This document shows, piece by piece, positions 696 to 29,801 of a stretch of DNA of 32,000 nucleotides. The translations under genes were made by a program, and so were the position numbers. Under the pieces are notes generated by a model, which was given only the letters and a program-made list of their open reading frames with translations, searched no databases and was not told the DNA's origin. Origin of the DNA: an uncultured Bacilli bacterium (GTDB taxonomy: Bacteria > Bacillota_I > Bacilli_A > RF39 > UBA660). Location of the stretch: positions 6,887-38,886 of the forward strand of contig CAKPGT010000002.1 of assembly GCA_934155185.1 (NCBI GenBank), in the 5' to 3' direction. How positions within the stretch are numbered: the stretch's first letter is position 1; each line of letters starts with the position of its first letter.

Positions 696-1301
696 TTAAG
701 TGTTTAAACCATAATTTTTATAATTCATATAAGGTGTTTTAAATATTTTATAAGTTATGGGAATTATTAATAAACATTCAATTAGCAATCCTATTATTAG
801 GCTGTTTATTAATAAGTTATTTTTAATAAAGAATGATATTATGAAATATATTATAGTTACTGAAATAGATAGTGTTTTAAAAATTAATCTTTTCCTTTTT
901 TTTATTAGTGGTCTTTTTACTGTATCTGCAGGAGCATAAGCAGTAATTATTATTCCAGCTAGTATATAAAGAATATATAGTATTTCTCTTGGTATAGTAA
1001 CCACTTTACACAAATAAGCACATCCAAGGAATAGTATGCTGGAAGTAACTAAGCATATAGCACTATTAGGAGCATGCATTCCAAATGCAAACAGTCGTAT
1101 GAAATTAAATGCTAATAATAATATTAATAATTCTTTAAATATTCCTAGTATAAATGCTAATGTAAAAATAATAACTGCTTTAGTAATTGTTAGATATATC
1201 CCCTCAACTCCATACATTATTTCATCAAGCTTATCTTCAGAATATTTAGGATACTGATTTTTTATACTATCTCTTATTTTAGATAATATCAACTTTTTCA
1301 T
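696..1301 (-). CDS. agrB: AgrB-family accessory gene regulator protein B (AgrD-processing membrane peptidase)
   Basis: 201-aa polytopic membrane protein. The N-terminus (KYSEDKLDEIMYGVEGIYLTITK...) and the FNFIRLFAFGMHAP motif with conserved His match AgrB. agrD follows it. Confidence 0.88.
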   Translation of the reverse strand: MKKLILSKIRDSIKNQYPKYSEDKLDEIMYGVEGIYLTITKAVIIFTLAFILGIFKELLILLLAFNFIRLFAFGMHAPNSAICLVTSSILFLGCAYLCKVVTIPREILYILYILAGIIITAYAPADTVKRPLIKKRKRLIFKTLSISVTIIYFIISFFIKNNLLINSLIIGLLIECLLIIPITYKIFKTPYMNYKNYGLNT

Positions 1302-2490: not shown

Positions 2491-4986
2491 ATGTTAGGTA
2501 TTTTAAAGAAAATATTTGATAGTGAATATAAAGAATTAAAAAGATTTAGAATTATAGCTGATGAAGTTTTTTCACTTGATGAAAAATATAAGAAAATGAG
2601 CGATAAAAAACTTAAAGATACTACTAATGAATTAAAGAAAAGATTGGAAAACGGTGAAACACTAGATGATTTAATACCAGATGCGTTTGCTTTAGTAAGA
2701 GAAGCATCATTTCGTGTAATTGGTGAAAAACCATATTATGTTCAAGTATTAGGTGCACTAGCAATTCATTTTGGTAATATATCTGAAATGAAAACAGGTG
2801 AAGGTAAAACATTAACTTGTGTTATGCCTGCTTATTTAAATGCATTAACTGGTAAAGGTGTTCATGTTGTAACTGTTAATGAGTATCTAGCTGGACGTGA
2901 TGCAAACTGGATGGGTCAAATATTTGAATTTTTAGGTATGACTGTTGCAGTAAACTTAAGAGAAATGAGCCCAAAGGAAAAGAAAGAAGCATACTTATGT
3001 GATATTCTTTACTCAACAAATAATGAATTAGGCTTTGATTACTTAAGGGATAATATGGTTGTAAGAGCTGAAGATAGGGTACAAAGGCCGCTTAATTTTG
3101 CCATAATTGATGAGGTAGACTCAGTATTAATAGACGAGGCTAGAACTCCACTTATTATTTCTGGTGGTGTTATGAAGTCAGCTAATTTATATAAAGATGC
3201 AGATAGATTTGTAAAATCCCTAAAAGAAAATGAAGATTACACTATAGATGAGAAAACAAAAGACATTACTTTAACTGATGAGGGTACCGAAAAAGGGGAA
3301 AGATATTTTAGATTAGAAAATTTATATGATATTGAACACACTGCTTTAGTTCATCATATAAATCAGGCTTTAAAAGCAAACTATACTATGAAGAATGATG
3401 TTGATTACGTAGTTCAAGAAGGAAAAGTAGTAATAGTTGACCAATTTACTGGAAGACTTATGCCAGGACGTGCTTTTTCTGACGGACTTCATCAAGCAAT
3501 AGAAGCTAAAGAAAATGTTGAAATAGAAGAAGAAACAAAAACACTAGCTACTATAACATTTCAAAATTACTTTAGAATGTATGAAAAATTATCTGGTATG
3601 ACAGGAACTGCAAAAACAGAAGAAGAAGAATTTAGAAACATATATAACATGTTTGTTATTCAAATACCAACTAATTTACCAGTAATAAGAATAGATGCAG
3701 CTGATTTAATTTATTCTACTAAAGAAGAAAAATATAAAGCTATTATTAATGAAATTAAAAAAAGACATGAAACAGGTCAGCCAGTTTTAGTTGGCACTAT
3801 TGCTATAGAAACAAGTGAAATAGTAAGTGGACTTCTTAAAAAAGCTAAAATTAAGCATGAAATACTAAATGCTAAGAACCATGCAAGAGAAGCTGAAATT
3901 ATCGCAAAAGCAGGTGAAAAGGGTGCTGTTACAATTGCTACTAATATGGCTGGTCGTGGTACTGATATTAAATTAGGTGAAGGCGTTAAGGAACTTGGAG
4001 GTTTATGCGTAATTGGTACGGAAAGACATGAATCAAGACGTATCGATAATCAGTTAAGAGGACGTTCAGGACGTCAAGGAGATCCAGGATTTAGCCAATT
4101 CTTTGTATCGTTCGAAGATGATTTAATGGTTAGATTTGGAACAGATAGATTTAAATCAATACTTGAGATGGCTGGTTTAGATAGTGAAAGAAATATGCGT
4201 AGTAAGACAATTACTAGATCTGTTGAAACTGCTCAAAAAAGAGTAGAAGGTAATAACTTTGATGCTCGTAAACATTTATTACAATATGATGATGTAATGG
4301 GAAGACATCGTGAAATTATGTATGCTAAGAGAAATGAGATTTTAGATAAAGAAGACATACATGAAACAGTGATTAATACCATAAAGGAACATATAGAAGG
4401 TTTAATAAGAAGACACACCGACGAGCGTGGTGTAATAGTAGAAGATAATTGCGATGAAATTGTTGAATATGTTAATGAAAATTTATTAAGAAATTCTAAT
4501 CTAAAATTATCTGAAATATTAAATAAAGATATATCAGAAATAATAGATGTAATTGAAAATAAAGTAATTACTGAATATGAAAATAAGATAAAAGAATTAC
4601 CTGACGAGATTAGAAATGATTTTGAAAAAGCAATAAGCTTGCAAGTTATCGACCGTTACTGGATGGAACATATAAACACTATGGATCATTTAAGAGAAAG
4701 TGTTTCTCTAAGGGGTTATGCTAATGAAGACCCACTTCAAGCTTATGTAAGAGAAGGTTTTCAAATGTTTGACGCTATGCTAGATAGTATTAGCAAAGAT
4801 ATTACGTTATATTTACTAAAAGCAGAGATAAGACAGAATTTAGAAGTAAAGCAAGTTAAGGGAAGAACTAATGATTCAAAGGATGCTACGCCTAAAAAGA
4901 CTGTTAAAAATGGAAAAAAAGTGGGTCGTAATGATCCATGTCCTTGTGGCAGTGGCAAGAAGTATAAACAATGTTGTGGTAAATAG
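2491..4986 (+). CDS. secA: Preprotein translocase ATPase SecA
   Basis: 831 aa. Walker A MKTGEGKTL, DEAD-like DEVDSVLIDEARTPLIIS, TNMAGRGTDIKLG and the C-terminal SEC-C zinc motif CPCGSGKKYKQCCGK. Confidence 0.98.
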   Translation: MLGILKKIFDSEYKELKRFRIIADEVFSLDEKYKKMSDKKLKDTTNELKKRLENGETLDDLIPDAFALVREASFRVIGEKPYYVQVLGALAIHFGNISEMKTGEGKTLTCVMPAYLNALTGKGVHVVTVNEYLAGRDANWMGQIFEFLGMTVAVNLREMSPKEKKEAYLCDILYSTNNELGFDYLRDNMVVRAEDRVQRPLNFAIIDEVDSVLIDEARTPLIISGGVMKSANLYKDADRFVKSLKENEDYTIDEKTKDITLTDEGTEKGERYFRLENLYDIEHTALVHHINQALKANYTMKNDVDYVVQEGKVVIVDQFTGRLMPGRAFSDGLHQAIEAKENVEIEEETKTLATITFQNYFRMYEKLSGMTGTAKTEEEEFRNIYNMFVIQIPTNLPVIRIDAADLIYSTKEEKYKAIINEIKKRHETGQPVLVGTIAIETSEIVSGLLKKAKIKHEILNAKNHAREAEIIAKAGEKGAVTIATNMAGRGTDIKLGEGVKELGGLCVIGTERHESRRIDNQLRGRSGRQGDPGFSQFFVSFEDDLMVRFGTDRFKSILEMAGLDSERNMRSKTITRSVETAQKRVEGNNFDARKHLLQYDDVMGRHREIMYAKRNEILDKEDIHETVINTIKEHIEGLIRRHTDERGVIVEDNCDEIVEYVNENLLRNSNLKLSEILNKDISEIIDVIENKVITEYENKIKELPDEIRNDFEKAISLQVIDRYWMEHINTMDHLRESVSLRGYANEDPLQAYVREGFQMFDAMLDSISKDITLYLLKAEIRQNLEVKQVKGRTNDSKDATPKKTVKNGKKVGRNDPCPCGSGKKYKQCCGK
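4963..4986 (+). repeat. Direct repeat copy 1 (att-like core): the true 3' end of secA
   Basis: TATAAACAATGTTGTGGTAAATAG. The same 24 nt recur at 7465-7488 (1 mismatch) and 10241-10264 (identical, and the identity extends 3 nt further, CTT). Confidence 0.85.
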
Positions 4987-5037
4987 CTTGTTTTATAAGG
5001 GTTTGTGAGTTTGACAATAGTCAAAAAAGGCAAAAAA

Positions 5038-5110
5038 TTGTGCACATAACGCCATTTGTGCACAAATTAAAAAAATCCCCATATTATAAGGGAAAAATAT
5101 ATGTGCACAT
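5038..5110. repeat. Cluster of three TGTGCACA palindromic motifs (left arm of islet A)
   Basis: TTGTGCACA at 5038-5046 and 5056-5064, ATGTGCACAT at 5101-5110. The same motif recurs at 7291-7299. Confidence 0.6.
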
Positions 5111-5116
5111 TAATAG

Positions 5117-5149
5117 AAACTAGCGTTAAGCTAGTTTTTATTCTCTTTT
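5117..5149 (+). terminator. Hairpin and T-rich tract downstream of secA
   Basis: AAACTAGC / GCTAGTTT 8-bp stem with a 5-nt loop, then a T-rich run. A homologous hairpin sits at the equivalent place in islet B (about 7540-7566). Confidence 0.55.
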
Positions 5150-5174
5150 CTAAAGATTTTTAGAAGGAGGATTT

Positions 5175-5498
5175 ATGGCACAAGTACATGTGACAAAAAG
5201 AGGAAACCTATTTCAATATAGGTTTGAAATTGCTCCACAAGGTGGAACAAGAAAGTATATTAATAAGTCTGGATTTAAGACAAAGCAAGAAGCTTATGAA
5301 GCAGGAATGAAAGCGTATAACGAATATTTAAATGTTGGTCATTCTTTCAAACCTTCTACAATGTCATTTGCTGATTATTTAGATTATTGGATGAAAAATT
5401 ATTGTGGGGTTAATCTAAGGAATAATACAATGCAAGCATATATAAACATTATAAATAATTATCTAAAAATTAACATTAATTACATTCTAATGGAATAA
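5175..5498 (+). pseudogene. Tyrosine recombinase/integrase, N-terminal fragment only (arm-binding and start of SAM-like domain)
   Basis: 107 aa. KRGNLFQYRFEI...GFKTKQEAYEAG...FADYLDYWMKNY is typical of phage-integrase N-termini. No catalytic R-H-R-Y domain follows; the ORF stops where the cargo promoter begins. Confidence 0.72.
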
Positions 5499-5502
5499 GA
5501 TC

Positions 5503-5543
5503 CTAAGATTTATTCTTAGTCTTCATATAATTTATGATATAAT
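5503..5543 (+). promoter_or_regulatory. Inverted repeat and extended -10 promoter upstream of the WYL regulator
   Basis: CTAAGA-N5-TCTTAG at 5503-5519 overlaps the -35 position. TGATATAAT lies at 5535-5543, which places the transcript start after the track ATG at 5542. Confidence 0.45.
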
Positions 5544-5559
5544 GAACGTAGGTGGTTTT

Positions 5560-6162
5560 ATGTCTAAAGTTTCTAATGTTATAACTATGTTAGAGTTGCT
5601 ACAATCAGGAAGAAAATATAGTATTAATGAACTTTCTAATAAACTCGAAGTTTCAGAAAGAATGATTAGAGTATATAAAGAAGATTTGGAAAAATCTGGA
5701 ATATATATAGATACAATAATGGGTCCATATGGGGGTTATGTATTAAACCAATCGGTTCGTATGCCTATTAGAAAATTTAAAATGAAAGATGCAAAATTAT
5801 TAGATAAGTACATTGCAAATGAAAAAAATAAAGACATAAAAGAAGAACTTATATTACTTCAGGATAAAATTAAAGGTATATACATTGGAAGTAAGCAAGA
5901 AGAAAAAGAATTAAATTTAAAAGATGAAACCGGTAAGAAGTATAATTTATTAACAAGAGCTATAAAAGAAAAGAGAAAAGTTAAAATATTATATTATTCT
6001 TATGGTAAAGGTGAAAATGAAAGAATAATTGATCCAGCGGAAATGTTTTTATTTCAAGATGGTTGGTACTGCGCAGCTTTCTGTGAAAAGAAACAAGATA
6101 TTAGGCATTTTGAATTAAAAAGAATAATAAAGTACGAATTATTAAATGAAAAATATGAGTAG
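5560..6162 (+). CDS. HTH-WYL domain transcriptional regulator (short form, no WCX extension)
   Basis: N-terminal wHTH (ITMLELLQSGRKYSINELSNKLEVSERMIRVYKEDLEKSGIYIDTIMGPYGGYVL). C-terminal WYL domain (VKILYYSYGKGENERIIDPAEMFLFQDGWYCAAFCEKKQDIRHFELKRI). Start chosen at ATG 5560 after GGTGG; the track start 5542 lies inside the -10 box. Confidence 0.85.
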   Translation: MSKVSNVITMLELLQSGRKYSINELSNKLEVSERMIRVYKEDLEKSGIYIDTIMGPYGGYVLNQSVRMPIRKFKMKDAKLLDKYIANEKNKDIKEELILLQDKIKGIYIGSKQEEKELNLKDETGKKYNLLTRAIKEKRKVKILYYSYGKGENERIIDPAEMFLFQDGWYCAAFCEKKQDIRHFELKRIIKYELLNEKYE

Positions 6163-6213
6163 ACGAAATATTACCTCTTTTTGAGTTATATTGAACTTGA
6201 AAGGAGATTTTTT

Positions 6214-7137
6214 ATGGAAAAAAACATGAAAGTTAATTTTGATTTTTTAAAAGCAAGGGTGATAGATTCATTAGACAATACTGACTTAGAATTTATTAGA
6301 AATGAATTATCTAAATTAAGTGAACCAACATTATTTAGTGGTGTTGGAGGATCAAGTGTAGTTAGTGAATTTGGCGCTAAAGTTATTAATACTAAAAATG
6401 GTATAATTTCAGTAAATAGTGAACCAAGAGATTTTTTATACCGAAATAATGGTGTACTTAGAAATGTAGTAGCATGTAGTTATAGTGGAAATAATTATGG
6501 AGTAGAATTAGCCTTTTTAAAAGGCTTAAGAAAATACTTGTTATCAAACAATTCATTCGATGATAGTGATGTGACTTATTTAAAATATGGTACTACCATC
6601 GATAAAGAAAGAAGTTTTATATCACTTGGTGCAACATTGATTCCTATAAGTATATTAATGAACTATTATTTAGATGGAAAAAACAATCCAATGTTAGATT
6701 GCATAGGAGAATCATCGTTCAATTTTGATTTAGAAAGTGATGTCTATGAAATATTCAGTGGCTATGATACCAGTACCGCATCAAAGTACTTAGAATCTAC
6801 AATAGTTGAATCTGGTATTGGAATACCTATAGTTCATGATAAGTATTCTTATTGTCATGGAAGAAGTACACTTGGTATTAATTATAATGGTATAGCGATT
6901 TATTATAATAGGAATACTGAATTCGATCTAATGATATTGGAGGAACTTAAAAAGTATTATAGTATGATCATCATTATTGATTCTAAATTTAAAGATCAAA
7001 TACTAGATGATTTTCAGATGCTTATCCAAAGCATGTATCTAACAAAGTATATTGCAGAGAAAAAATTAAAAGATTTATCCAAAGTAGAATACTCACCGAT
7101 AGTAAAAAAATTGTATAAATATAGTGGACAAATTTAA
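6214..7137 (+). CDS. Hypothetical protein, possible degenerate double SIS-like (phosphosugar-binding Rossmannoid) fold
   Basis: Start ATG 6214, 7 nt after AAGGAG (6201-6206); the track start 6181 is TTG. Weak motif resemblance only: SGVGGSSVVSEFGAKV (G-x-G-x-S), ACSYSGNN (S-x-S-G) and YSYCHGRSTL (like K-H-G-P). No nuclease, ATPase, TIR or SIR2 motif is visible by eye. Confidence 0.65.
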   Translation: MEKNMKVNFDFLKARVIDSLDNTDLEFIRNELSKLSEPTLFSGVGGSSVVSEFGAKVINTKNGIISVNSEPRDFLYRNNGVLRNVVACSYSGNNYGVELAFLKGLRKYLLSNNSFDDSDVTYLKYGTTIDKERSFISLGATLIPISILMNYYLDGKNNPMLDCIGESSFNFDLESDVYEIFSGYDTSTASKYLESTIVESGIGIPIVHDKYSYCHGRSTLGINYNGIAIYYNRNTEFDLMILEELKKYYSMIIIIDSKFKDQILDDFQMLIQSMYLTKYIAEKKLKDLSKVEYSPIVKKLYKYSGQI

Positions 7138-7257
7138 GCACACTAATTTTTCTTTTTATGTTCAATTGCTTACTTTTTAAATTATAGTATAATTTATTTG
7201 GCAGTATATTTATAAATATACTATATTAAATAAAATTTTTAGGAAAGAAATTTATAT

Positions 7258-7310
7258 CTGCACACAACAGTTCCTATTAAAATGGGAACATTGTGCACAT
7301 TTTGTGCTCA
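7258..7310. repeat. TGTGCACA-type motifs and GTTCC/GGAAC inverted repeat (right arm of islet A)
   Basis: CTGCACACA at 7258-7266, GTTCC-N10-GGAAC at 7270-7289, TTGTGCACA at 7291-7299, and a degenerate TTTGTGCTCA at 7301-7310. Confidence 0.55.
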
Positions 7311-7464
7311 TTAACCTAAAAACATATAGTAAAAATAATACTATATGTACCATTTATACCGTATCTGTTTAGACCTTTTAAGCCTTGTAAAATCTATAAT
7401 ACTACATATATTTCATAGTGTTATATGTACAGGAAAAGGATGAACTTGTGGCTCAGGAAAAAAA

Positions 7465-7488
7465 TATAAACAATGCTGTGGTAAATAG
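7465..7488 (+). repeat. Direct repeat copy 2 (att-like core, secA 3' end copy)
   Basis: TATAAACAATGCTGTGGTAAATAG. The upstream frame reads C-G-S-G-K-K-Y-K-Q-C-C-G-K-stop but has a TGA 15 codons before the terminal TAG and no start codon, so it is not a gene. Confidence 0.85.
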
Positions 7489-7594
7489 TTTATAAAATAA
7501 GGAAAATAATTTACAAACATTTTTGAAAACATAAGAAATACTAGCGATTTGCTGGTATTTTTTCATTTGCTAAGTAATTAGTGGAGAAAAAAAT

Positions 7595-7867
7595 ATGAGA
7601 AATGTTTATGCGCAAAAAGAGGAAAGATATATCAATATCAATTTGCTATTGCATCTATTAATGGCAAAAGAAAAAAAGGTAAAAACAATTAAAACCAAAG
7701 CGGAGGCTATTGAGGCAGGAATAAAGACACTCAATGAATATATAAATGTTGGGCATTGTATGGAGTCAAGCAATGTGCCATATGGTGATTACTTAGATTA
7801 TTGGATAAAGGAACATTGTGAAATAAACTTAAAGTATCATACGATACAGACTTATAAAAAAAATTGA
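7595..7867 (+). pseudogene. Tyrosine integrase N-terminal fragment, frameshifted and truncated
   Basis: KAEAIEAGIKTLNEYINVGHCM...GDYLDYWIKEHCEINL parallels islet A (KQEAYEAGMKAYNEYLNVGHSF...ADYLDYWMKNYCGVNL). The AKRGKIYQYQFAIASINGKRKK segment homologous to TKRGNLFQYRFEIAPQGGTRKY is in another frame (about 7611-7676), with the shift back at a poly-A run. Confidence 0.7.
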
Positions 7868-8647
7868 TTTTGAAAGTGAAATAATTACAAAATATAAATA
7901 TGATAATGTTGGTAATATTGGTAACATGTTATACAAAAAAATTTATGTTCTTAATACGTATAACTTTATTACTAAAGATATATATATAATTATAATAATG
8001 AAAATAGGCAATATCAATTAACTAAATTTAACAATACTATTATTACTTATGATGAGATAGGTAATCCATTAACTATAGGGGATACAATCAACTTAACATG
8101 GATTAATGGTAGAGAACTGGAAACTTATAATGATGGTATTAACCTAATTTCATACAAATATAATTCTGATGGTATAAGAATAAGTAAAAAAGTAAATAAC
8201 AATGAAACGAAATATTACCTAGAGGATAATGACATAATATTTGAAAAAAAAGGTAATAATGTGTTATACTATTTACGTAATGATATAGATGATTTGTTTG
8301 GTTTTATGTATAATGATGATTTATATTATTATATAAAAAATAATACGAAAGATATTATAGGTATATTGGATAGTAGTCATAATATAGTTGCTAAATATAA
8401 ATATGATTCTTGGGGTAAAGTAATTTCTATAACAGATTGTAATGGTTATGATATATCAAATGATATTAATAATATAGCAAATATAAATCCATTTAGATAC
8501 AGGAGTTATTATTATGATTCAGAAACTAAATTATATTATTTGAATAGTAGATATTATAATCCAGAATGGAAAAGATTTATTAATCCGGATTCTTATGGGG
8601 AACAAATTGGTGGTAATATATTACTTCATAACATATATATTCTTTAA
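7868..8647 (+). pseudogene. Rhs/YD-repeat protein fragment (last YD repeats and Rhs-associated core), N-terminally truncated and frameshifted
   Basis: YD repeats: ITKYKYDNVGNI, ITYDEIGNPLTIGDTINLTWINGREL, YKYNSDGIRISK, YKYDSWGKV. Core end: FRYRSYYYDSETKLYYLNSRYYNPEWKRFINPDS...GGN. There is no upstream Rhs body; the fragment abuts the integrase fragment. A frame break occurs near 7975-7990. Confidence 0.8.
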
Positions 8648-9233
8648 ATAACCCTATTTTGTATAATGACGAAAGTGGTAATTTCCCAGGAGCTCTATCA
8701 TTAGCTACAGGTGTACTTTATGCTTTTGGGAAGGCTATGCTTAAGGCTGCTATATATGTAACTATTGGTGGTTTAGTTATAGGAGGATCTATTTCTGCTG
8801 GTAAAGCTATGGCAAATAGTAGAAGTAAATCAAAGACAAAAAAGAAAACGAAAAGTAAAACAAAAACAAAAACTGCTGTAGCTGCAAAAGTAAAAACTAG
8901 TACAAAAAATCTTCGTATAATAATAAACCATGTACAGAGGCCTATTTTACACAAGATATTAGAGATGTTGTACGCGGTGAAAGATTAACAATTGAAAAAA
9001 CAATTGCAAGAGTTAATGCTAAGGGAAATGTTATGTGTGACAGTTATTGGCCTGCCAAGAAAGTTGCTACTGATTTATCAACAAATCCAATGTGCGAAAT
9101 AAATAAAATTCAACGTAAAGGATATAAGTATTTCTATCATTTTCATCTAAATAGAGATACTTATAAGGATGTACATATATTCTTTGAAGGTGTACCATTA
9201 GATTTCTTTGAAGGAAAGGGGAATTGTAGATGA
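8647..9233 (+). pseudogene. Rhs C-terminal tip: junction motif, TM and K/T/S-rich linker, small toxin domain of unknown family (two frame breaks)
   Basis: NNPILYNDESGNF (degenerate N-P-x4-D-P-x-G junction) is read after a frame change in the (AT)4 run at 8633-8640. A second frame change lies between 8901 and 8988. The terminal domain reads ...RVNAKGNVMCDSYWPAKKVA...GYKYFYHFHLNRDTYKDVHIFFEG. Confidence 0.55.
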
Positions 9234-9958
9234 GAATAAGAGGTAAAGTGGATGGTGACTTATACAAGAAGTTAATGAGTTATATTGTTTCAAAAAGTGA
9301 TGTTTTGTCAGTATCAGTTAGACTTGATTATGATAGGAAAATTGCTAATAAAGTTATAAATATTATTATGTCTAGTAATGGATATACTGTTAATGATATT
9401 GTAAATAATTTTTCTAAAGAATATATAGAAAAAATAGCTGAAAAAAACAAGAAAAATAAATTAATTTTCGATGAAGAATATATTTGTAATGAAAAGCAAT
9501 GTGTAATAAAACATATTCAAAATTTTTCAGAGGAGTACAGGAAAAAACTTATATACGACAGAAGAAAAAATCATATAAAAAGTATAATTTATTGGATGGT
9601 TTATGAATATAAAACAACTAATTGGTTACACAAATTTAAAACCAATATCATTTATAAGTCGTGCAAGGATCCATCTTATACCACTTATTATCTTAATTTG
9701 ACAGTGGATTTAATAAACGATATTCTTAGTAGGAATTCATTTAATGATTGGAATTTTCCTTTTTCAGTCGAAGATATTGCACTTTTTAAAAATAAACAAT
9801 GTTTATTATGCTCTGAGACACATGAAAATGTATGGGATATATATTGCAAGGATGAAAATGAATATAAGTATTTTAAATCTATTGGTATTAAATTCAATGA
9901 CCCGAGATATATATTAGAAGGGAAAAAAGGATTACCTTACGATAATTATTATATCTAA
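9230..9958 (+). CDS. Putative cognate immunity protein (unknown family; paralogue at 22137-22784)
   Basis: ATGA start/stop overlap with the toxin tip ORF. No signal peptide or TM segment. The C-terminal FNDWNFPFSVEDIALF...YCKDENEYKYFKSIGIKFND matches FSDWKFPDSVENLFFY...FCKDEKEFRYLKSLGVRFND in the 22137 gene. Confidence 0.55.
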   Translation: MRIRGKVDGDLYKKLMSYIVSKSDVLSVSVRLDYDRKIANKVINIIMSSNGYTVNDIVNNFSKEYIEKIAEKNKKNKLIFDEEYICNEKQCVIKHIQNFSEEYRKKLIYDRRKNHIKSIIYWMVYEYKTTNWLHKFKTNIIYKSCKDPSYTTYYLNLTVDLINDILSRNSFNDWNFPFSVEDIALFKNKQCLLCSETHENVWDIYCKDENEYKYFKSIGIKFNDPRYILEGKKGLPYDNYYI

Positions 9959-10054
9959 TTATATTTCAGATTTGTTAGTTTTAGATTAATGCAAAAGATA
10001 TTTTGGTTTATTATCATTATGTCTTTTAATATTATTTGAGAAGGAGACTTTAAG

Positions 10055-10201
10055 ATAGATTTTATAGTAAAATATTGGATTAAAATACTATTAACATCCA
10101 TTACGTCAGGTATCTTGTATATTTTTAAACAATATATAGGATTAAAAAATGGAATGACCGCGCTTTTAAGAAATGAAATTATTAGAATATATGATAGGTA
10201 A
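10055..10201 (+). pseudogene. Small TM protein remnant, possibly phage holin-like (start codon lost)
   Basis: GAAGGAG followed by ATA instead of ATG. Reads IDFIVKYWIKILLTSITSGILYIFKQYIGLKNGMTALLRNEIIRIYDR: one TM helix followed by a G-x-x-ALLR-x-x-II-x-x-Y tail that I associate with small phage lysis-cassette proteins (from memory, unverified). Confidence 0.3.
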
Positions 10202-10240
10202 GAAGAGCTTGGGCTTTGTCCATGCGGTTCAGGATGTGAG

Positions 10241-10264
10241 TATAAACAATGTTGTGGTAAATAG
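10241..10264 (+). repeat. Direct repeat copy 3 (att-like core, secA 3' end copy)
   Basis: TATAAACAATGTTGTGGTAAATAG. The frame reads E-E-L-G-L-C-P-C-G-S-G-C-E-Y-K-Q-C-C-G-K-stop directly after an in-frame TAA (10199-10201) with no start codon. Confidence 0.85.
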
Positions 10265-10444
10265 CTTATAAAATAAGTAAATATTTAAGATCCAAAAATT
10301 ATTAAGTTGGTTCAGGTTTCAGAACTTATCTATAAAATAGTTAAAAATTGTTGTAAAATAAAGGCGTGAGCAAAAAATCATATGTTGACACCTTTTAAAA
10401 TTTAGTGGAAAATATGTACAATAAAGTTGTTACTAATTTTAAAA

Positions 10445-17320: not shown

Positions 17321-18419
17321 ATGGAATTTACAATAAAAGATATAGAATCACTAGAAACAAAATTTAACGATATTTGGAGGTCTCTTTGACATACCAAACA
17401 AAGAAGATGAAATAAATATATTAAACAAGAAATTAGCAGAACCTAATATTTGGAGTAATCCAAAAAAAGCTGAAGAAATAAGCAAAAGAATAAGTAATTT
17501 AAAGGGAATAATTGATCCGATAAATACAATAAAAGAAAATATTCTTGCTTTAAAACAGATAGATGAATTTAGTGATGATGAATTAGATGAATTATTGCAA
17601 AAGGATTTTGAGGCGTTATATCAAAGTACCAAGGATATGTTAGAAAAAGAAGAAACCTTAACATATTTATCTGGAAAATTTGATGGTAATGCGGCAATTT
17701 TTGAAATACACGCCGGGGCAGGTGGTACAGAAAGCTGCGACTGGGCTTTGATGTTATCTAGAATGTATAGTAAGTATTTTGATAAGAAAAACTATGAATA
17801 TGAAATTATAGATGAACAAAAAGGAGAAGAAGCTGGAATAAAAAGCATAGTTTATTTAGTTAAAGGAAACTTTGCATATGGTTATCTAAAAAATGAAAAA
17901 GGAGTTCATAGATTAGTGCGCCTATCTCCGTTTGATGCCAATAATAGAAGACATACATCTTTTGCAGCAGTTGATGTAACTCCAGAGTTTGATGATGATA
18001 TAGATATTAAACTAGATGAAAAAGATATAAGAATTGATGTGTATAGAAGTAGTGGGGCAGGAGGTCAAGGTGTAAATACAACGGACTCTGCAGTTAGAGT
18101 AACGCACATACCAAGCGGAATAGTTGTTACATGCCAAAATGAGAGAAGTCAAATTAAAAATAAAGAAACAGCACTAAAGGTCTTAAAAAGCAAACTATAT
18201 CAGATAGAATTAAAATCAAGAAAAGAAAAGATAGACTCAATGAAAAGTGATCATAGCGGAATAGAATTCGGCTCGCAAATAAGAAGCTATGTGCTTCACC
18301 CATATTCGCTAATAAAAGATCATAGAACTGGTTTTGAGACTTCTAATGTAAGTAAAGTGCTTGATGGTGATATAGATGTATTTATAGAAAGCAATCTAAA
18401 AGGAGAAAAGGCAAGATGA
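17321..18419 (+). CDS. prfB: Peptide chain release factor 2 (requires programmed +1 frameshift at 17387)
   Basis: ORF0 MEFTIKDIESLETKFNDIWRSL ends at TGA 17387-17389. The +1 frame continues from 17388 as DIPNKEDEINILNKKLAEPNIWSNP... into track ORF 17595-18419. SPF (RLSPFD) and GGQ (SGAGGQGVN) motifs are present. Confidence 0.95.
17376..17390 (+). promoter_or_regulatory. prfB autoregulatory +1 frameshift site
   Basis: GGAGG TCT CTT TGA C: an internal Shine-Dalgarno-like element 3 nt before the canonical CUU UGA C slippery/stop context. Confidence 0.9.
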
Positions 18420-26987: not shown

Positions 26988-29801
26988 GTGGATAAAATTA
27001 TAGTAAAAGGTGCTAGAGAAAATAATTTAAAAAACGTAGATATAGAAATACCAAAAAATAAATTAACGGTTATGACAGGTGTATCTGGAAGTGGTAAGTC
27101 TTCCCTTGCATTTGATACAATATACGCAGAAGGGCAAAGAAGATATGTAGAAAGCTTATCTTCTTATGCTAGACAATTTTTAGGTGGAACTTCAAAACCA
27201 GATGTGGATTCTATAGAAGGACTTTCTCCTTCTATATCAATAGATCAGAAAACAACTAACAACAACCCAAGATCAACAGTTGGTACTGTAACTGAAATAT
27301 ATGATTATTTTAGACTTTTATTTGCACGTATTGGTGTGCCTTATTGTCCTAACCATGGCATTCCAATATCAAGTCAGTCTATTGAAGAAATGACAACACA
27401 GATAATGAATGAAGAAGATAAAACAAAGCTAATTATTATGTCTCCTGTAGCTTACGGTGAAAAAGGAACGTTTAAAGATTTACTAGATTCTTTAAGAAGG
27501 GACGGATATGTTCGTGTCAAAATAGATGGAGAAGCAAGAGATTTAAGTGAAGAAATTATACTTGATAAAAATAAGAAACATAATATTTTAGTTGTTATAG
27601 ATAGAATTATAAAGAAAGATGAAGCTAGAAGCAGAATATATGAAGCTATTGAACTAGCTTGCAAGTTATCTAAGGGTAAAGCTGTAGTAGAAATCCCTGG
27701 AAGAGATGAAATAGTTATGAGTGAGTCATTTGCATGTCCGCACTGTGATTTTTCGCTAGAGGAATTAGAGCCTAGAATGTTTTCTTTTAATGCTCCGTAT
27801 GGTTCTTGCCCAGATTGCAAGGGACTTGGCTTTAAACAAAAAATAAGTGAGTTATTAATAATTCCTGATAAAGAAAAAACATTAGCAAGAGGCGGAATAG
27901 AACCTCTTTCAGGTATGGATGATCAAAACATATATATAAAAAAATTAGAAATAGTTTGTAATAAATATGGTATAGATATGAATAAGAAAATGAAGGATTT
28001 AACTAAGAAAGAATTAGATATTATTCTTCGTGGTACAAAAGAACCTATAGAATTTAATTTTAAAACAAGAAGTGGAAATGTGATGAATAGCTATGAACCA
28101 TATGAGGGTGTTTTAAATAATTTAGAAAGAAGATATTTTGAAACAAATAGCGAATTTATAAGAGATTGGTTAGGCAAATATATGGTGGAGTTAACTTGCC
28201 CGACTTGTCATGGTAAAAGATTAAAAGAAAGCGTGTTATCTGTACTTATAAACAAGAAAAATATAATTGATTTAACGGATATGAATATAGATAAACTATA
28301 TGACTTTTTTGACAAGCTTAAATTAAGTAAGGAAAAGGAAGAAATAGCAAGACTATTAATTAAGGAAATAAAGTCAAGATTAGAGTTTTTACATAATGTA
28401 GGACTTGGATATTTAACTTTATCTCGCGGTGCTGGAACTTTATCTGGTGGTGAGGCTCAAAGAATAAGATTAGCAACGCAAATAGGTTCTCAGCTAACGG
28501 GTGTACTATACGTTCTTGATGAACCAAGTATTGGTCTTCACCAAAGAGATAATCAAAGATTAATCGACTCACTATTAAAAATGAGAGACTTAGGAAACAC
28601 TTTAATAGTAGTAGAACATGACACTGATACGATGCTTCAGTCTGACTATTTAGTTGATGTTGGCCCTGGAGCAGGAGAGCATGGTGGGAGGATAGTAGCT
28701 TGCGGAACGCCAGAAGAAGTTATGCAAAATACCAATAGTTTAACAGGGGATTATCTAAGCGGTAGAAAAAAGATAGAAGTGCCTAAAACAAGAAGAAAAG
28801 GAAACGGAAAATTTATTGAAATAAAAGGAGCCAAGGAAAACAATTTAAAGAATATAAATGTTAAAATTCCACTAGGCAAACTTGTATTAGTAACTGGAGT
28901 ATCTGGCTCAGGTAAAAGTAGTTTAGTTAACCAGATATTATATAAAGCTTTAGCATTGAATGTGTATGGAAGTAAAGTTATACCTGGAAAACATAGAAGT
29001 ATTAAAGGTATAGAAAACGTAGATAAGGTAATAGATATAACTCAAGACCCAATTGGTAGAACGCCTCGTAGTAATCCTGCAACATATGTCGGTGTATTTG
29101 ATGATATAAGAGATGTCTTTGCACAAACTCGTGAAGCAAAAATAAGAGGTTATGAAAAAGGAAGATTTTCATTTAATGTAAAAGGTGGAAGATGTGAAGC
29201 ATGCTGGGGAGACGGTGTTAAAAAAATATCAATGAATTTCTTGCCTGATGTTTATGTGCCTTGCGAAGTATGTGGTGGAACAAGATTTAATAAAGAAACA
29301 TTAGAGGTTAAATATAAGGGTAAAACCATATATGATGTACTTCAAATGAGGGTTGAAGAAGCAACAGAATTCTTCGAAAATCACCCAAAAATTAAAAGAA
29401 AATTGCAAGTTTTAATGGATGTCGGATTAGGTTATATAAAACTTGGTCAAAGCGCCCCAACTTTATCTGGTGGTGAGGCATCAAGAGTAAAACTTGCAAA
29501 GGAACTACAAAAAAAGCCTACTGGTAAAAGCGTATTTATATTAGATGAGCCAACGACAGGATTACATAGTCACGATATTAAAAAATTGCTAGTAATTTTA
29601 AATAGAATTGTTGATAATGGGGATACTGTAATAGTTATTGAACATAATTTAGATGTTATAAAAGTAGCAGACCATATTATTGATTTAGGACCAGAGGGTG
29701 GAGATTTAGGAGGCACTATCGTATGTGAAGGAACTCCTGAAAAAGTAGCAAAATGTAAAGAATCATATACAGGAATGTATTTAAAAAATGTTTTAAATTA
29801 A
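26988..29801 (+). CDS. uvrA: Excinuclease ABC subunit A
   Basis: 937 aa. Two ABC modules (GVSGSGKSS twice, LSGGEAQR and LSGGEASR) and zinc-finger Cys clusters (CPHC...CPDC, CEAC...CEVC). GTG start. Confidence 0.98.
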   Translation: MDKIIVKGARENNLKNVDIEIPKNKLTVMTGVSGSGKSSLAFDTIYAEGQRRYVESLSSYARQFLGGTSKPDVDSIEGLSPSISIDQKTTNNNPRSTVGTVTEIYDYFRLLFARIGVPYCPNHGIPISSQSIEEMTTQIMNEEDKTKLIIMSPVAYGEKGTFKDLLDSLRRDGYVRVKIDGEARDLSEEIILDKNKKHNILVVIDRIIKKDEARSRIYEAIELACKLSKGKAVVEIPGRDEIVMSESFACPHCDFSLEELEPRMFSFNAPYGSCPDCKGLGFKQKISELLIIPDKEKTLARGGIEPLSGMDDQNIYIKKLEIVCNKYGIDMNKKMKDLTKKELDIILRGTKEPIEFNFKTRSGNVMNSYEPYEGVLNNLERRYFETNSEFIRDWLGKYMVELTCPTCHGKRLKESVLSVLINKKNIIDLTDMNIDKLYDFFDKLKLSKEKEEIARLLIKEIKSRLEFLHNVGLGYLTLSRGAGTLSGGEAQRIRLATQIGSQLTGVLYVLDEPSIGLHQRDNQRLIDSLLKMRDLGNTLIVVEHDTDTMLQSDYLVDVGPGAGEHGGRIVACGTPEEVMQNTNSLTGDYLSGRKKIEVPKTRRKGNGKFIEIKGAKENNLKNINVKIPLGKLVLVTGVSGSGKSSLVNQILYKALALNVYGSKVIPGKHRSIKGIENVDKVIDITQDPIGRTPRSNPATYVGVFDDIRDVFAQTREAKIRGYEKGRFSFNVKGGRCEACWGDGVKKISMNFLPDVYVPCEVCGGTRFNKETLEVKYKGKTIYDVLQMRVEEATEFFENHPKIKRKLQVLMDVGLGYIKLGQSAPTLSGGEASRVKLAKELQKKPTGKSVFILDEPTTGLHSHDIKKLLVILNRIVDNGDTVIVIEHNLDVIKVADHIIDLGPEGGDLGGTIVCEGTPEKVAKCKESYTGMYLKNVLN

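Follow-up and report, generated by a model that had tools for sequence, protein, structure and literature searches.

A WYL regulator, a conserved RNA hairpin leader and a predicted double-SIS phosphosugar enzyme on a decayed integrative islet of an uncultured Bacilli bacterium

The window analysed here, a stretch of 32,000 nucleotides on a contig of an uncultured Bacilli bacterium, carries an islet of ~2.5 kb whose borders are copies of the 3' end of the secA gene. Within it, a gene encoding an HTH-WYL transcription factor (gene 1) is followed by a conserved leader and by a gene encoding a predicted, divergent double-SIS phosphosugar enzyme (gene 2). The features of the locus are listed in Table 1.

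Table 1. Features of the islet and its surroundings, in window positions.
Feature	Position	Strand	Evidence or remark
secA ORF	2491-4986		stop codon 4984-4986
Genuine secA 3' end	4938..5000	+	att-like left border of islet 1; direct-repeat family D1, reference copy
Tyrosine integrase remnant, N-terminal, 107 aa	5175..5498	+	Pfam Arm-DNA-bind_4 1.1e-7 and Phage_int_SAM_3 4.6e-6 only
Inverted repeat CTAAGA-N5-TCTTAG	5503..5519	.	upstream of the WYL promoter; read from sequence
Putative extended -10-like box TGATATAAT	5535..5543	+	for the WYL gene; read from sequence
Gene 1, HTH-WYL transcription factor, 200 aa	5560..6162	+	Pfam WYL E 5.6e-18, HTH_11 E 6.7e-8
Gene 2 leader, conserved, 54-55 nt	6162..6216	+	motif, hairpin, U-run, ATG
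Gene 2, divergent double-SIS phosphosugar enzyme (predicted), 307 aa	6214..7137	+	AF2, Foldseek, residue conservation
Imperfect hairpin, then TTTTG	7260..7300	+	downstream of gene 2; fold of 7250-7315 -15.5 kcal/mol, z -2.76
Diverged secA 3' end copy (...CGSGKKYKQCCGK*)	7440..7502	+	D1, 78% identity to 4938-5000
Second integrase remnant, N-terminal, 90 aa	7595..7867	+	Pfam Phage_int_SAM_3 0.002, under the curated cut-off; PHROG integrase
Third secA 3' end copy	10216..10278	+	closes islet 2; D1, 73% identity to the reference

Flanking direct repeats that duplicate the end of the target gene are characteristic of site-specific integrative islets, and three copies of the secA 3' end are found here. 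The middle one, whose core is TATAAACAATGCTGTGGTAAATAG, serves both as the right border of islet 1 and as the left border of the neighbouring islet 2. The same arrangement recurs in related loci, with up to five copies in one of them (L010). The first integrase fragment matches PHROG integrase families, and relatives of the locus retain varying lengths of the same gene; the second fragment is paralogous to the first (repeats D2-D4) and is part of islet 2, not of the WYL-SIS unit. A Pfam scan found the catalytic domain in neither fragment; an intact integrase is lacking, and only these two N-terminal pieces are present. The first-pass annotation had called the pair integrase-flanked, which is an overstatement because both integrase genes are dead remnants; what carries the locus is a decayed integrative islet, located at the secA 3' end. 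Horizontal movement of this islet is supported by a related locus (L001) in which gene 2 is 98% identical and SecA 65% identical. Regulator and enzyme also form mosaics, as in L069, where the WYL protein is 91% and gene 2 58% identical, and in several lineages the pair sits stably beside core genes such as rpsL-rpsG-fusA, ileS/atp or prfB. Regulator, leader and enzyme are inherited and exchanged together in gut and rumen Bacilli and in more distant uncultured Firmicutes. The islet hotspot also gathers RHS toxin fragments, Fic proteins and a retron.

Gene 1 had been read as a winged-HTH plus WYL protein, and Pfam confirms this: the HTH occupies approximately residues 9-60 and the WYL domain residues 128-192, so that the protein has the N-terminal winged HTH and the WYL domain that define an HTH-WYL transcription factor. 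It ends eight residues past the WYL domain and lacks a C-terminal WCX domain. Its sequence matches in the PDB are PafBC, PafC and BrxR-type WYL domains, its best PADLOC match is the CRISPR-associated WYL model (5e-29), and its dN/dS of 0.03-0.17 indicates purifying selection. The upstream signals described earlier, namely the inverted repeat, the extended -10 box and both ribosome-binding sites, were found by eye where they had been placed. The extended -10 box is retained in many close loci, even where the DNA further upstream differs. A simple sigma-70 scan did not list it and found promoter-like sites in the window no more frequently than in shuffles, such a generic scan being uninformative in DNA this AT-rich. 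Only some loci (the window, L003, L018, L020, L021 and L024) retain the inverted repeat, and the region 5495-5562 folds no better than its shuffles (z -0.86); on these two grounds the repeat was rejected as a general WYL operator, and it is at most a possible operator of limited occurrence.

The leader of gene 2 is an RNA hairpin that buries the ribosome-binding site of the gene. Behind the motif GACGAAATA at 6162-6170 stands a hairpin of 13 bp (6175-6206) with the Shine-Dalgarno sequence AAAGGAG in its 3' arm, followed by a U-run and then by the ATG. The leader folds with a dG of -13.1 kcal/mol (z -4.13), which none of 200 shuffles equalled, and a sequence scan flagged it as terminator-like. 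RNAalifold on a plain MAFFT alignment gave no structure because the arms were misaligned; the analysis was carried out with single-sequence folds and a covariance-model alignment. All 45 distinct versions of the leader share one fold, and wherever the covariance model matched a locus, the match lies on the + strand and immediately precedes the start of gene 2. Of the cells, 94.8% are paired, and compensatory changes occur at 11 of the 13 pairs, with 0 of 500 shuffles equalling this; such changes, which include G-U pairs, argue for selection on the leader at the RNA level. The only conserved single-stranded part is the GAC...ATA motif of 9-12 nt. A second copy of this motif was not found above chance in the window, a GAC-like stretch at 8204-8220 being discounted as it lies inside an RHS coding sequence, and Rfam 15 covariance models gave no match at E <= 1 between positions 4900 and 7700. 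The leader is present in nearly every locus that carries the WYL gene (L097 was not scored) and absent from the seven WYL-less loci inspected. At the other end of the unit, the imperfect hairpin behind gene 2 is a possible operon terminator.

The 307-aa product of gene 2 had been reported to belong to no nameable family, in agreement with direct scans against Pfam, PADLOC, PHROGs, NCBIfam and, by sequence, the PDB, none of which returned anything significant; the protein also fails the curated sequence models (Pfam SIS PF01380 and the NCBIfam equivalogs). A faint NCBIfam match pointed to SIS-type PGI/PMI (residues 36-93, E 0.002; 17 bits against TIGR02128, where the cut-off is 214 bits). A specific kinship with archaeal PGI/PMI was not upheld, 1tzb being a weak profile match (E 0.33). 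The fold was reached only through distant homologues, profiles and AF2/Foldseek. The AF2 model (pLDDT 94.2) has two alternating beta-alpha units, and the Foldseek search that the first-pass annotation had proposed led to double-SIS enzymes with probability 1.00, TM ~0.6-0.75 and E from 1e-9 to 8e-13, all at 12-16% identity; the top matches are 2aml, NagB-II (8fdb/8eym), the GlmS isomerase domain (1mos/1moq), FrlB-like 3eua and AgaS (3c3j). The profile-PDB matches (5uqi, 3eua and 2aml) are likewise SIS proteins. Model and Foldseek search agree on the two tandem alpha/beta/alpha SIS subdomains of the superfamily. The PF01380 cut-off is passed by the distant PfkB-fused homologues P0224, P0225, P0227 and P0231, plus P0249; P0202 falls under it, and P0265 has no SIS match.

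The motifs that had been picked out by eye are real SIS motifs (GVGGSS 43-48, CSYSGNN 88-94 and YCHGRS 213-218), and profile, Foldseek and residue conservation together support the suggestion of a phosphosugar-binding, Rossmann-like protein. Both phosphate-binding motifs of the superfamily are present, G-x-G-x-S as GVGGS (43-47) and S-x-S-G-x-T/N as SYSGNN (89-94). Among 57 homologues, S47, H215 and G216 are invariant, S91 is conserved in 46, position 89 holds S in 46 and T in 10, and position 94 holds N in 32 and T in 18. The catalytic Glu and His, the latter followed by Gly, lie exactly 16 residues apart (E199 in 56/57, H215-G216 in 57/57). The C-terminal tail is also conserved (Y301, Y/F303 and G305), as are the family-specific motifs E132-x-SFIS-x3-T-x2-P and HxKYxYCHGRS. 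The latter contains His-Gly-Arg where His-Gly-Pro is usual; as a consequence of this "HGR-type" motif, the chemistry may differ from that of known members. With a dN/dS of 0.09-0.25, gene 2 is under purifying selection. As modelled, it has the fold of the GlmS-isomerase/NagB-II/AgaS/FrlB superfamily together with its complete active-site constellation, and a sequence with such a complete isomerase/deglycase site suggests an enzyme more than a typical toxic effector or a pure sensor. It founds an unannotated branch of the SIS superfamily; clustering at 50% identity divides this branch into ~244 clusters, every one of them from uncultured Firmicutes.

The coupling of gene 2 to a WYL gene is both tight and widespread. 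The WYL gene lies directly upstream in 72/77 evaluable related loci and in 7/10 distant contexts, among them homologues with PfkB kinases or Ham1 NTP pyrophosphatases as fusion partners or neighbours, and the upstream WYL genes are orthologous even where the gene-2 homologues, PfkB and Ham1 fusions among them, have fallen to 26-48% identity. A WYL-BtpA-SIS variant also occurs among the distant homologues. The three distant homologues without a WYL gene are found beside restriction-modification genes or in an integrase/HTH prophage-like module. PfkB and Ham1, each fused or adjacent in distant members, are joined as neighbours by NUDIX, nucleoside deoxyribosyltransferase and ASCH proteins; some of the Ham1/NUDIX adjacency may reflect housekeeping gene order in small genomes. 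The neighbours form 148 distinct clusters, in which GNAT, HAD, NUDIX, HD, PNP, Ham1 and Maf-type enzymes are the commonest families; no sugar transporter or PTS family was found among the 25 commonest Pfam families of these clusters or in those cluster representatives that were inspected. The window islet itself holds no kinase, Ham1 or transporter, so that the pathway cannot be reconstructed locally. Searches of the literature for WYL with SIS, SIS with anti-phage function, and WYL with phosphosugar, PfkB or Ham1 returned nothing relevant, which is consistent with the first-pass impression that no system of this architecture has been described. A degenerate E-x-G...HxK..Y.HGR DNA motif run against metagenome contigs gave three chance matches and no homology.

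The best reading of these observations, which we regard as moderately probable, is a three-part unit of HTH-WYL regulator, leader hairpin and double-SIS enzyme that works as a default-OFF, WYL-switched phosphosugar isomerase/deglycase. The product of gene 2 would be catalytically active, as an aldose-ketose isomerase, a deaminase or a deglycase, with a phosphorylated sugar or sugar adduct as its substrate, and expression of the gene would be kept off by termination and/or occlusion of the ribosome-binding site until ligand sensing by the WYL protein switches it on. The ligand might be a small molecule related to the substrate or, as for PafBC and DriD, a single-stranded nucleic acid. A possible site of action for the WYL protein is the GAC...ATA motif adjoining the hairpin, either as DNA, where the protein would activate a weak promoter with a -10-like box in the hairpin loop, or as RNA, where it would work by antitermination. 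The repeated fusion or adjacency of PfkB, a kinase-plus-deglycase logic shared with FrlD/FrlB and FraD/FraB, and of Ham1, together with the NUDIX, nucleoside deoxyribosyltransferase and ASCH neighbours, makes a sugar adduct in phosphorylated form, perhaps one derived from a nucleotide, the most likely substrate. In that case the unit would serve conditional clean-up or salvage, and neither immunity nor the bulk catabolism of sugars.

An ordinary catabolic role, in which gene 2 is a fructosamine-6-phosphate (Amadori) deglycase or an aminosugar-6-phosphate deaminase/isomerase of the FrlB/FraB/AgaS/NagB-II kind, the WYL protein responds to the substrate and the host feeds on glycated amino acids or aminosugars in the gut, is in our judgement unlikely. 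The closest structures are exactly such enzymes, the catalytic residues match those of FrlB and FraB, one fusion is named "fructoselysine-6-P-deglycase FrlB-like" by JGI, and the PfkB fusions and neighbours mirror the kinase-plus-deglycase pathways FrlD/FrlB and FraD/FraB. However, known pathways for Amadori compounds and aminosugars use GntR, DeoR or RpiR regulators, not WYL, and identity to the characterised enzymes is as low as 12-16%, with HGR replacing HGP. The habitat, gut and rumen, is rich in Amadori compounds (PMC10285752); yet no co-oriented PTS, ABC or MFS sugar or amino-acid transporter was found in ~95 loci, neither kinase nor transporter lies in the islet or beside the pair in 80 close loci, and links to Ham1, NUDIX, nucleoside deoxyribosyltransferase and ASCH are unexpected for amino-sugar catabolism. 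The homologues of gene 2 sit outside the sugar-utilisation operons in which the first-pass annotation would have expected an ordinary metabolic SIS enzyme, and their co-occurrence with WYL genes is strong.

Defence systems and DNA-damage regulons are the settings in which WYL regulators are best known, and BREX, CBASS and CRISPR loci are among those they control. Another alternative is an anti-phage or abortive-infection module, in which the WYL protein senses infection (e.g. through single-stranded DNA or a nucleotide signal) and releases a default-OFF SIS enzyme. The target of this enzyme would be an essential metabolite, phosphosugar or nucleotide-derived, that it depletes or converts, or else a sugar donor required by the phage, which it destroys. 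The CRISPR-associated PADLOC match of gene 1 fits such a module, as do the mobility, patchiness and mosaic structure of the pair (L001 and L069), the RHS fragments, Fic and retron RT of the hotspot, and the distant homologues that lie beside NgoMIV and LlaJI restriction-modification genes, a TCAD9-like giant protein or a prophage-like integrase/HTH module; a tight default-OFF control, as the leader suggests, would suit a costly effector. Nevertheless, a WYL gene next to an unknown gene on an islet is by itself no evidence of phage defence. The PADLOC run that had been proposed recognised no defence system (BREX, CBASS, CRISPR or others) beside gene 1 in the window and has no model for gene 2, no copies of gene 2 were found by tblastn in phage and plasmid collections or in IMG/VR, and we found no literature linking SIS domains to anti-phage function. 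Defence models account for only a handful of the 148 neighbour clusters, namely a retron-type RT, a single Fic protein (SoFic), a type I S subunit and some candidate (PDC) families of PADLOC, while house-cleaning and GNAT enzymes dominate. Furthermore, several lineages keep the pair beside the core genes named above, both genes are under ordinary purifying selection, and the recurrent PfkB/Ham1 fusion looks like a metabolic pathway. The defence or anti-defence role offered by the first-pass annotation has gained no positive evidence, and we consider the module as just described improbable.

Equally doubtful, in our estimation, is a bolder proposal: a novel kind of conditional switch, built from the WYL protein, the leader with its GAC...ATA motif and hairpin, and the "HGR-type" double-SIS protein. 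In this scheme, a signal that is nucleotide-derived or reports damage or infection would be perceived by the WYL protein, whose direct target would be the leader, either in its RNA form or as a promoter of unusual type. The enzyme thereby released would cleave or isomerise a non-canonical nucleoside or a sugar adduct in phosphorylated form, made available by PfkB from the nucleoside and by Ham1 from the triphosphate, and the role would be sanitation of the nucleotide pool or destruction of an immune signal or phage metabolite. If this were true, WYL control would for the first time be tied to a defined small-molecule pathway, and a new SIS-enzyme chemistry would be added. Very improbable is a split analogue of RpiR/MurR, in which the SIS protein mainly binds a phosphosugar and modulates the WYL protein by protein-protein contact: SIS is the sensing module of RpiR/MurR, MurR SIS domains are among the weak PDB matches of gene 2, and the strict pairing and the hairpin coupling both genes would suit a complex of fixed stoichiometry, but the nearly invariant catalytic Glu/His, phosphate loop and C-terminal tail would be unnecessary for a pure sensor, the kinase and pyrophosphatase fusions indicate substrate channelling, and the enzyme occurs without the WYL gene in several loci.

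Few WYL proteins have a known ligand, as PafBC and DriD do with single-stranded DNA, and the widespread WYL regulators are usually discussed together with defence. A compact WYL subfamily locked to one enzyme with a readable active site offers a tractable route to a WYL ligand via the substrates and products of that enzyme. With the conserved leader, a further candidate is added to the known cis-regulatory elements, one that is accessible to simple reporters, and the PfkB/Ham1 fusions hint at a clean-up route for sugar adducts or non-canonical nucleotides in gut bacteria with reduced genomes.

Each part of the unit may be compared with known systems. Like the attenuators that combine an intrinsic terminator with sequestration of the Shine-Dalgarno sequence, the leader has a hairpin and U-run before the start codon and the Shine-Dalgarno sequence in the 3' arm; unlike riboswitch and antitermination platforms, it has no recognisable aptamer or Rfam family, and it co-occurs with a WYL protein instead of a known RNA-binding antiterminator. 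Gene 1 shares the N-terminal winged HTH and the WYL domain with PafBC, DriD, BrxR, CapW and the CRISPR-associated WYL proteins and, like known HTH-WYL regulators, lies immediately upstream of its presumed target. It differs from this group in its length of 200 aa and the absence of WCX, BrxR and CapW being ~290-300 aa long with a C-terminal WCX dimerisation domain. It further differs from known HTH-WYL regulators in that the presumed target is neither a defence system nor an SOS-like regulon but a phosphosugar enzyme, and that a conserved RNA hairpin leader accompanies it. RpiR/MurR, in which HTH_6 is fused to an SIS sensor, also combine an HTH and an SIS phosphosugar module in one functional unit, whereas here the genes are separate, the HTH partner carries WYL, and the SIS partner is a full double-SIS enzyme with catalytic residues.

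With regard to gene 2, the best structural matches come from the GlmS isomerase domain, NagB-II and AgaS, which have the catalytic dyad and SIS motifs in common with it, the Glu-His spacing of 16 residues in GlmS (E488/H504) being that of E199/H215. It differs from them in its identity of only 12-14%, in having no glutaminase domain, in a different C-terminal tail and in a location outside aga/nag operons, and there is no clear conservation of Lys at the positions equivalent to K485 and K603 of GlmS. From FrlB/FraB gene 2 differs in its identity of ~15% with no Pfam or NCBIfam match above threshold, in HGR instead of HGP and its family-specific motifs, and in its setting, with no transporter or kinase in the window, a WYL in place of a GntR regulator, and the Ham1/NUDIX associations. 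On the other hand, the rule of a 16-residue Glu/His spacing, given in PMC10285752, is embodied in FrlB by E224/H240 (PMC10285752) and in FraB by the catalytic pair E214/H230 (PMC12359202), and by residue match gene 2 would likewise pair a Glu general base with a His general acid within the double-SIS fold. The phosphate-binding residues S46, S91, S93 and T96 of FrlB (PMC10285752) correspond to S47, S89, S91 and N/T94 of gene 2, the C-terminal tail, functional in FrlB/FraB, is conserved, and, as the PfkB kinases FrlD and FraD accompany FrlB and FraB, PfkB partners distant members of the gene-2 family.

Direct scans of gene 2, the 307-aa product encoded downstream of the HTH-WYL gene (gene 1), gave no match in Pfam, PADLOC or the PDB; the sole signal was a faint one in NCBIfam, to SIS-type PGI/PMI. 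A profile built from 57 full-length homologues matched the SIS protein 5uqi (4.5e-6), the B. subtilis FrlB-like protein 3eua (4e-5, spanning both halves) and also 2aml in the PDB. The AlphaFold2 model on the 57-homologue alignment (pLDDT 94.2) was placed by Foldseek among double-SIS enzymes at 12-16% identity, the best structures being Lmo0035/AgaS-like (2aml, E 8e-13, TM 0.74), with further matches to NagB-II (8fdb/8eym), the GlmS isomerase domain (1mos/1moq), 3eua and AgaS (3c3j). The phosphate-binding residues of FrlB are S46, S91, S93 and T96 (PMC10285752), to which S47, S89, S91 and N94 of gene 2 correspond; among the 57 homologues S47 is invariant, position 89 is S in 46 and T in 10, S91 is kept in 46, and position 94 is N in 32 and T in 18. 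E199 is kept in 56 of the 57 and H215-G216 in all of them, and E199 and H215 are exactly 16 residues apart, the Glu-His spacing reported for GlmS (E488/H504), FrlB (E224/H240) and FraB (E214/H230) (PMC10285752; PMC12359202). The family has HGR where HGP is usual, carries its own motif E132-x-SFIS-x3-T-x2-P, and keeps a family-specific C-terminal tail (Y301, Y/F303, G305). Judged by residue conservation the active site is intact, and this, together with the double-SIS fold and the family-specific features, leads us to read gene 2 as a predicted active enzyme from a branch of the double-SIS superfamily that is new and has no annotation. Fold and active-site residues thus bear out the faint SIS fingerprints recorded in the first-pass annotation.

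A large protein database contains 1,531 relatives, and HMMER, run exhaustively on representatives at 50% identity, gave only 244 clusters. In five of the distant members tested the gene-2 domain scores above the Pfam SIS threshold; several distant members have an N-terminal PfkB kinase fused to it, and others an N-terminal Ham1 (ITPase-family) domain. In one clade the protein is longer by an N-terminal domain of ~105-125 aa to which Pfam has no match (proteins P0121, P0122, P0124, P0126, P0128); in its loci (L015, L018, L020-L026, L028-L032, L044) gene 2 starts ~350 nt earlier, and the leader hairpin described below precedes the longer ORF.

Gene 1 combines HTH_11 (6.7e-8, residues 9-60) and WYL (5.6e-18, residues 128-192) domains in Pfam, and matches a CRISPR-associated WYL model of PADLOC at 5e-29; its WYL domain shows sequence matches to PafBC, PafC and BrxR-type structures. 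Since the protein stops eight residues past the WYL domain, it lacks a WCX domain, unlike BrxR-/CapW-type regulators. Many relatives keep both the extended -10 box TGATATAAT of gene 1 and its ribosome-binding site GGTGG, even where the upstream DNA is different. An inverted repeat further upstream is kept in some relatives only, and its folding is no better than that of shuffled sequence.

The association of the two genes, raised in the first-pass annotation, holds widely. Scanning a single genome of each species gave 80 close loci (gene-2 identity 53-98%), nearly all from uncultured gut and rumen Bacilli (e.g. CAG:594, CAG:877, CAG:460, "Tenericutes"). A WYL orthologue lies directly upstream of gene 2 in 72 of them, is reduced to a remnant in one, displaced by 4.7 kb in one and absent from three, the last three being not evaluable at contig ends. 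In seven of ten distant contexts obtained by exact-protein look-up, a gene-2 homologue of only 26-48% identity is again immediately preceded by the WYL orthologue (41-62% identical). The distant arrangements are WYL-BtpA-SIS, WYL ahead of a Ham1-SIS or of a PfkB-SIS fusion, WYL-SIS-Ham1, WYL-SIS-Ham1-NUDIX-nucleoside deoxyribosyltransferase-ASCH, and WYL-SIS-PfkB. The WYL gene is missing in the other three, i.e. L083 635-7412, where a PfkB-SIS fusion follows an 824-aa HAD-domain protein and adjoins an NgoMIV restriction-modification system, L104 667-11338, where the homologue lies between a TCAD9-like 1,273-aa protein and an LlaJI-type restriction-modification system, and L106 954-3876, a prophage-like module with an integrase, HTH_26 and HTH_3. 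These most distant homologues have neither WYL nor leader and stand in conflict-type contexts.

Both genes are under purifying selection, and the pair evidently moves horizontally; in L001, a related locus, gene 2 has 98% identity against 65% for SecA, and the same discordance is found in several other loci. In L069 the WYL protein is 91% identical and gene 2 is 58% identical. Such regulator-enzyme mosaicism suggests that the two genes have been recombined, plausibly at a point within the near-invariant leader. Across L069, L070, L064, L067, L079 and L080, WYL is 77-91% identical to that of the window, and gene 2 only 53-58%. In L001 (7782-8921) the WYL gene is cut to its last 55 codons, with the leader and gene 2 intact; this natural "regulator-less" variant could show if the hairpin keeps gene 2 silent by itself.

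Features of the window around the WYL-SIS pair
Feature	Position	Remarks
AgrB-family gene	696-1301	- strand; beside LytTR response regulator and histidine kinase
csp	1604-1828	conserved backbone
hpf	1875-2408	conserved backbone
secA	2491-4986	conserved backbone
secA 3' end, last 63 nt	4938-5000	reference copy
Islet 1	5001-7502	integrase remnant, gene 1, gene 2
Integrase N-terminal remnant, 107 aa	5175-5498	islet 1; Arm-DNA-binding and SAM-like parts only
Inverted repeat	5503-5519
Extended -10 box	5535-5543
Gene 1	5560-6162	200-aa HTH-WYL protein
Leader	6162-6216	conserved hairpin element
Hairpin loop	6188-6197	in leader
Gene 2	6214-7137	double-SIS protein
Diverged secA-end copy	7440-7502	78% identical to 4938-5000
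Islet 2	7503-10278	opens with integrase remnant, then RHS core fragments and small ORFs
Integrase remnant, 90 aa	from 7595	islet 2
RHS-associated core domain	8261-8647	islet 2
Diverged secA-end copy	10216-10278	73% identical to 4938-5000
prfB	17595-18419	backbone, beyond variable DNA
yitT, ftsE, ftsX, M23/PcsB-like peptidase, UDG-family gene, uvrB		backbone further on, after prfB
Long ORF	26988-29801	probably uvrA; next after the uvrB end of the backbone

In the window the secA-prfB interval is filled by variable DNA, and the recurrence of diverged secA-end copies within it is taken as the signature of repeated site-specific integration at the secA 3' end. The first-pass annotation had described the pair as the sole cargo of an integrase-flanked islet; the unit is confirmed and islet 1 carries no other cargo, but both integrases are dead remnants, of which the second lies outside this islet. 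The remnant in islet 2 runs into RHS/YD-repeat coding fragments; beyond these come a membrane-like ORF of 109 aa, one of 66 aa and one of 242 aa without a family, and islet 2 looks like an orphan RHS toxin-tip or immunity-type remnant. The secA 3' end is an integration hotspot where small islets accumulate in tandem, a diverged copy of the secA terminus closing each of them: L010 has five secA-end copies (at 2181, 3574, 6104, 9086 and 12111), and in L009 the copies at 249 and 2193 enclose the WYL-SIS pair alone (~1.9 kb), without an integrase. In L020 (4010-5256) and L023 (1905-3169), the longer integrase of a neighbouring islet is present as two ORFs (~170 + 229 aa) with the same split point. 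An agr-like quorum-sensing locus lies just upstream of csp-hpf-secA, as it also does in L081. The prfB ORF has a late start (274 aa) and is matched by the PCRF model from position 77 only, consistent with the programmed +1 frameshift usual for release factor 2 rather than with truncation.

A conserved element that the first-pass annotation did not include lies between the two genes. The 52-nt spacer is almost invariant across loci with near-saturated synonymous sites, and consists of a motif GAC-GAAATA overlapping the stop codon of the WYL gene, a hairpin of 13-16 bp with the Shine-Dalgarno sequence of gene 2 as its 3' arm, and five to seven U residues, at 6208-6213 in the window, followed by AUG. 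The window hairpin (-13.1 kcal/mol, z -4.13) is equalled by none of 200 shuffles and was flagged as terminator-like by a simple scan, and all 45 distinct leader versions fold to the same hairpin (-12 to -22 kcal/mol). In a model-based alignment of these 45, 94.8% of cells pair and both-sided changes occur in 11 of 13 pairs, a level reached by 0 of 500 shuffles, while slid controls pair at 47-61%; this alignment is biased towards the covariance model's structure, and independent single-sequence folds agree with it. The high frequency of G-U pairs points to selection acting on the RNA. In every matched locus the covariance model places the leader immediately before the start of gene 2, on the + strand, including the PfkB fusions, the Ham1 fusions, the locus with WYL 4.7 kb away, and the WYL-BtpA-SIS variant, where it separates BtpA from the SIS gene; the palindromic stem also gives weaker matches on the reverse strand. 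L097 has no covariance-model score for the leader, with a similar motif by eye only, and the leader was not found in seven inspected WYL-less loci. It has no Rfam match.

Such a leader is expected to hold gene 2 OFF by default, by terminating transcription and/or by masking the ribosome-binding site. We infer two ways in which the hairpin might be opened. First, the WYL protein, or ribosomes terminating on the WYL gene, could counteract it at the RNA level. Second, the hairpin could shield gene 2 from transcription of the WYL gene; a weak internal promoter would then be activated by the WYL protein, loosely as PafBC acts next to a -10 box. The loop in the window and its equivalents in relatives nearly always contain a -10-like box (TATATT, TATAAT, TGnTATAAA-type), with a -35-like TAGACG/GTGACA ~21 nt before it; these elements could form an internal promoter of gene 2 that depends on an activator.

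In a survey of 148 distinct gene clusters lying no more than three genes from the WYL-SIS pair, the commonest Pfam families were GNAT acetyltransferases (8), HAD and NUDIX (3 each), PNP and HD (2 each), and Ham1, Maf, NTPase and adenosine deaminase (1 each); further neighbours were identified as NTPase_I-T, UDG-family, NUDIX, Fic and ASCH-kinase genes. The PfkB link recurs and resembles the pairing of a kinase with a deglycase in Amadori-compound pathways (PMC10285752), and one gene-2 fusion has been named FrlB-like by JGI. The Ham1 link is also recurrent (two fusion architectures, two adjacencies), and together with the NUDIX, deoxyribosyltransferase and ASCH neighbours it points instead towards nucleotide-derived substrates. 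We modestly favour a default-OFF, WYL-switched phosphosugar isomerase or deglycase serving conditional clean-up or salvage. That gene 2 is instead an ordinary Amadori or aminosugar catabolic enzyme, as its fold and the kinase link would allow, is unlikely: no sugar PTS or ABC system stands beside the pair in the examined loci, and neither the WYL regulator nor the Ham1 link fits. A defence or abortive-infection effector, defence being among the roles proposed in the first-pass annotation, accords with the mobility, the hotspot location and the tight control, and with the restriction-modification and integrase/HTH surroundings of the three WYL-less distant contexts; yet PADLOC finds little among the neighbours (a single retron-type RT, SoFic, a single type I S subunit, some candidate families), gene 2 itself has no match, and no copies occur in phage, plasmid or IMG/VR collections. 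We hold this role to be quite improbable. A non-catalytic sensor role of the SIS protein is very doubtful indeed, being disfavoured by the invariant catalytic residues.

Literature searches gave nothing relevant on WYL with SIS, phosphosugar, PfkB or Ham1, or on SIS with an anti-phage role. WYL regulators, SIS enzymes and terminator-like leaders are all known kinds of component; their combination here, the enzyme subfamily and this particular leader appear to be undescribed so far.
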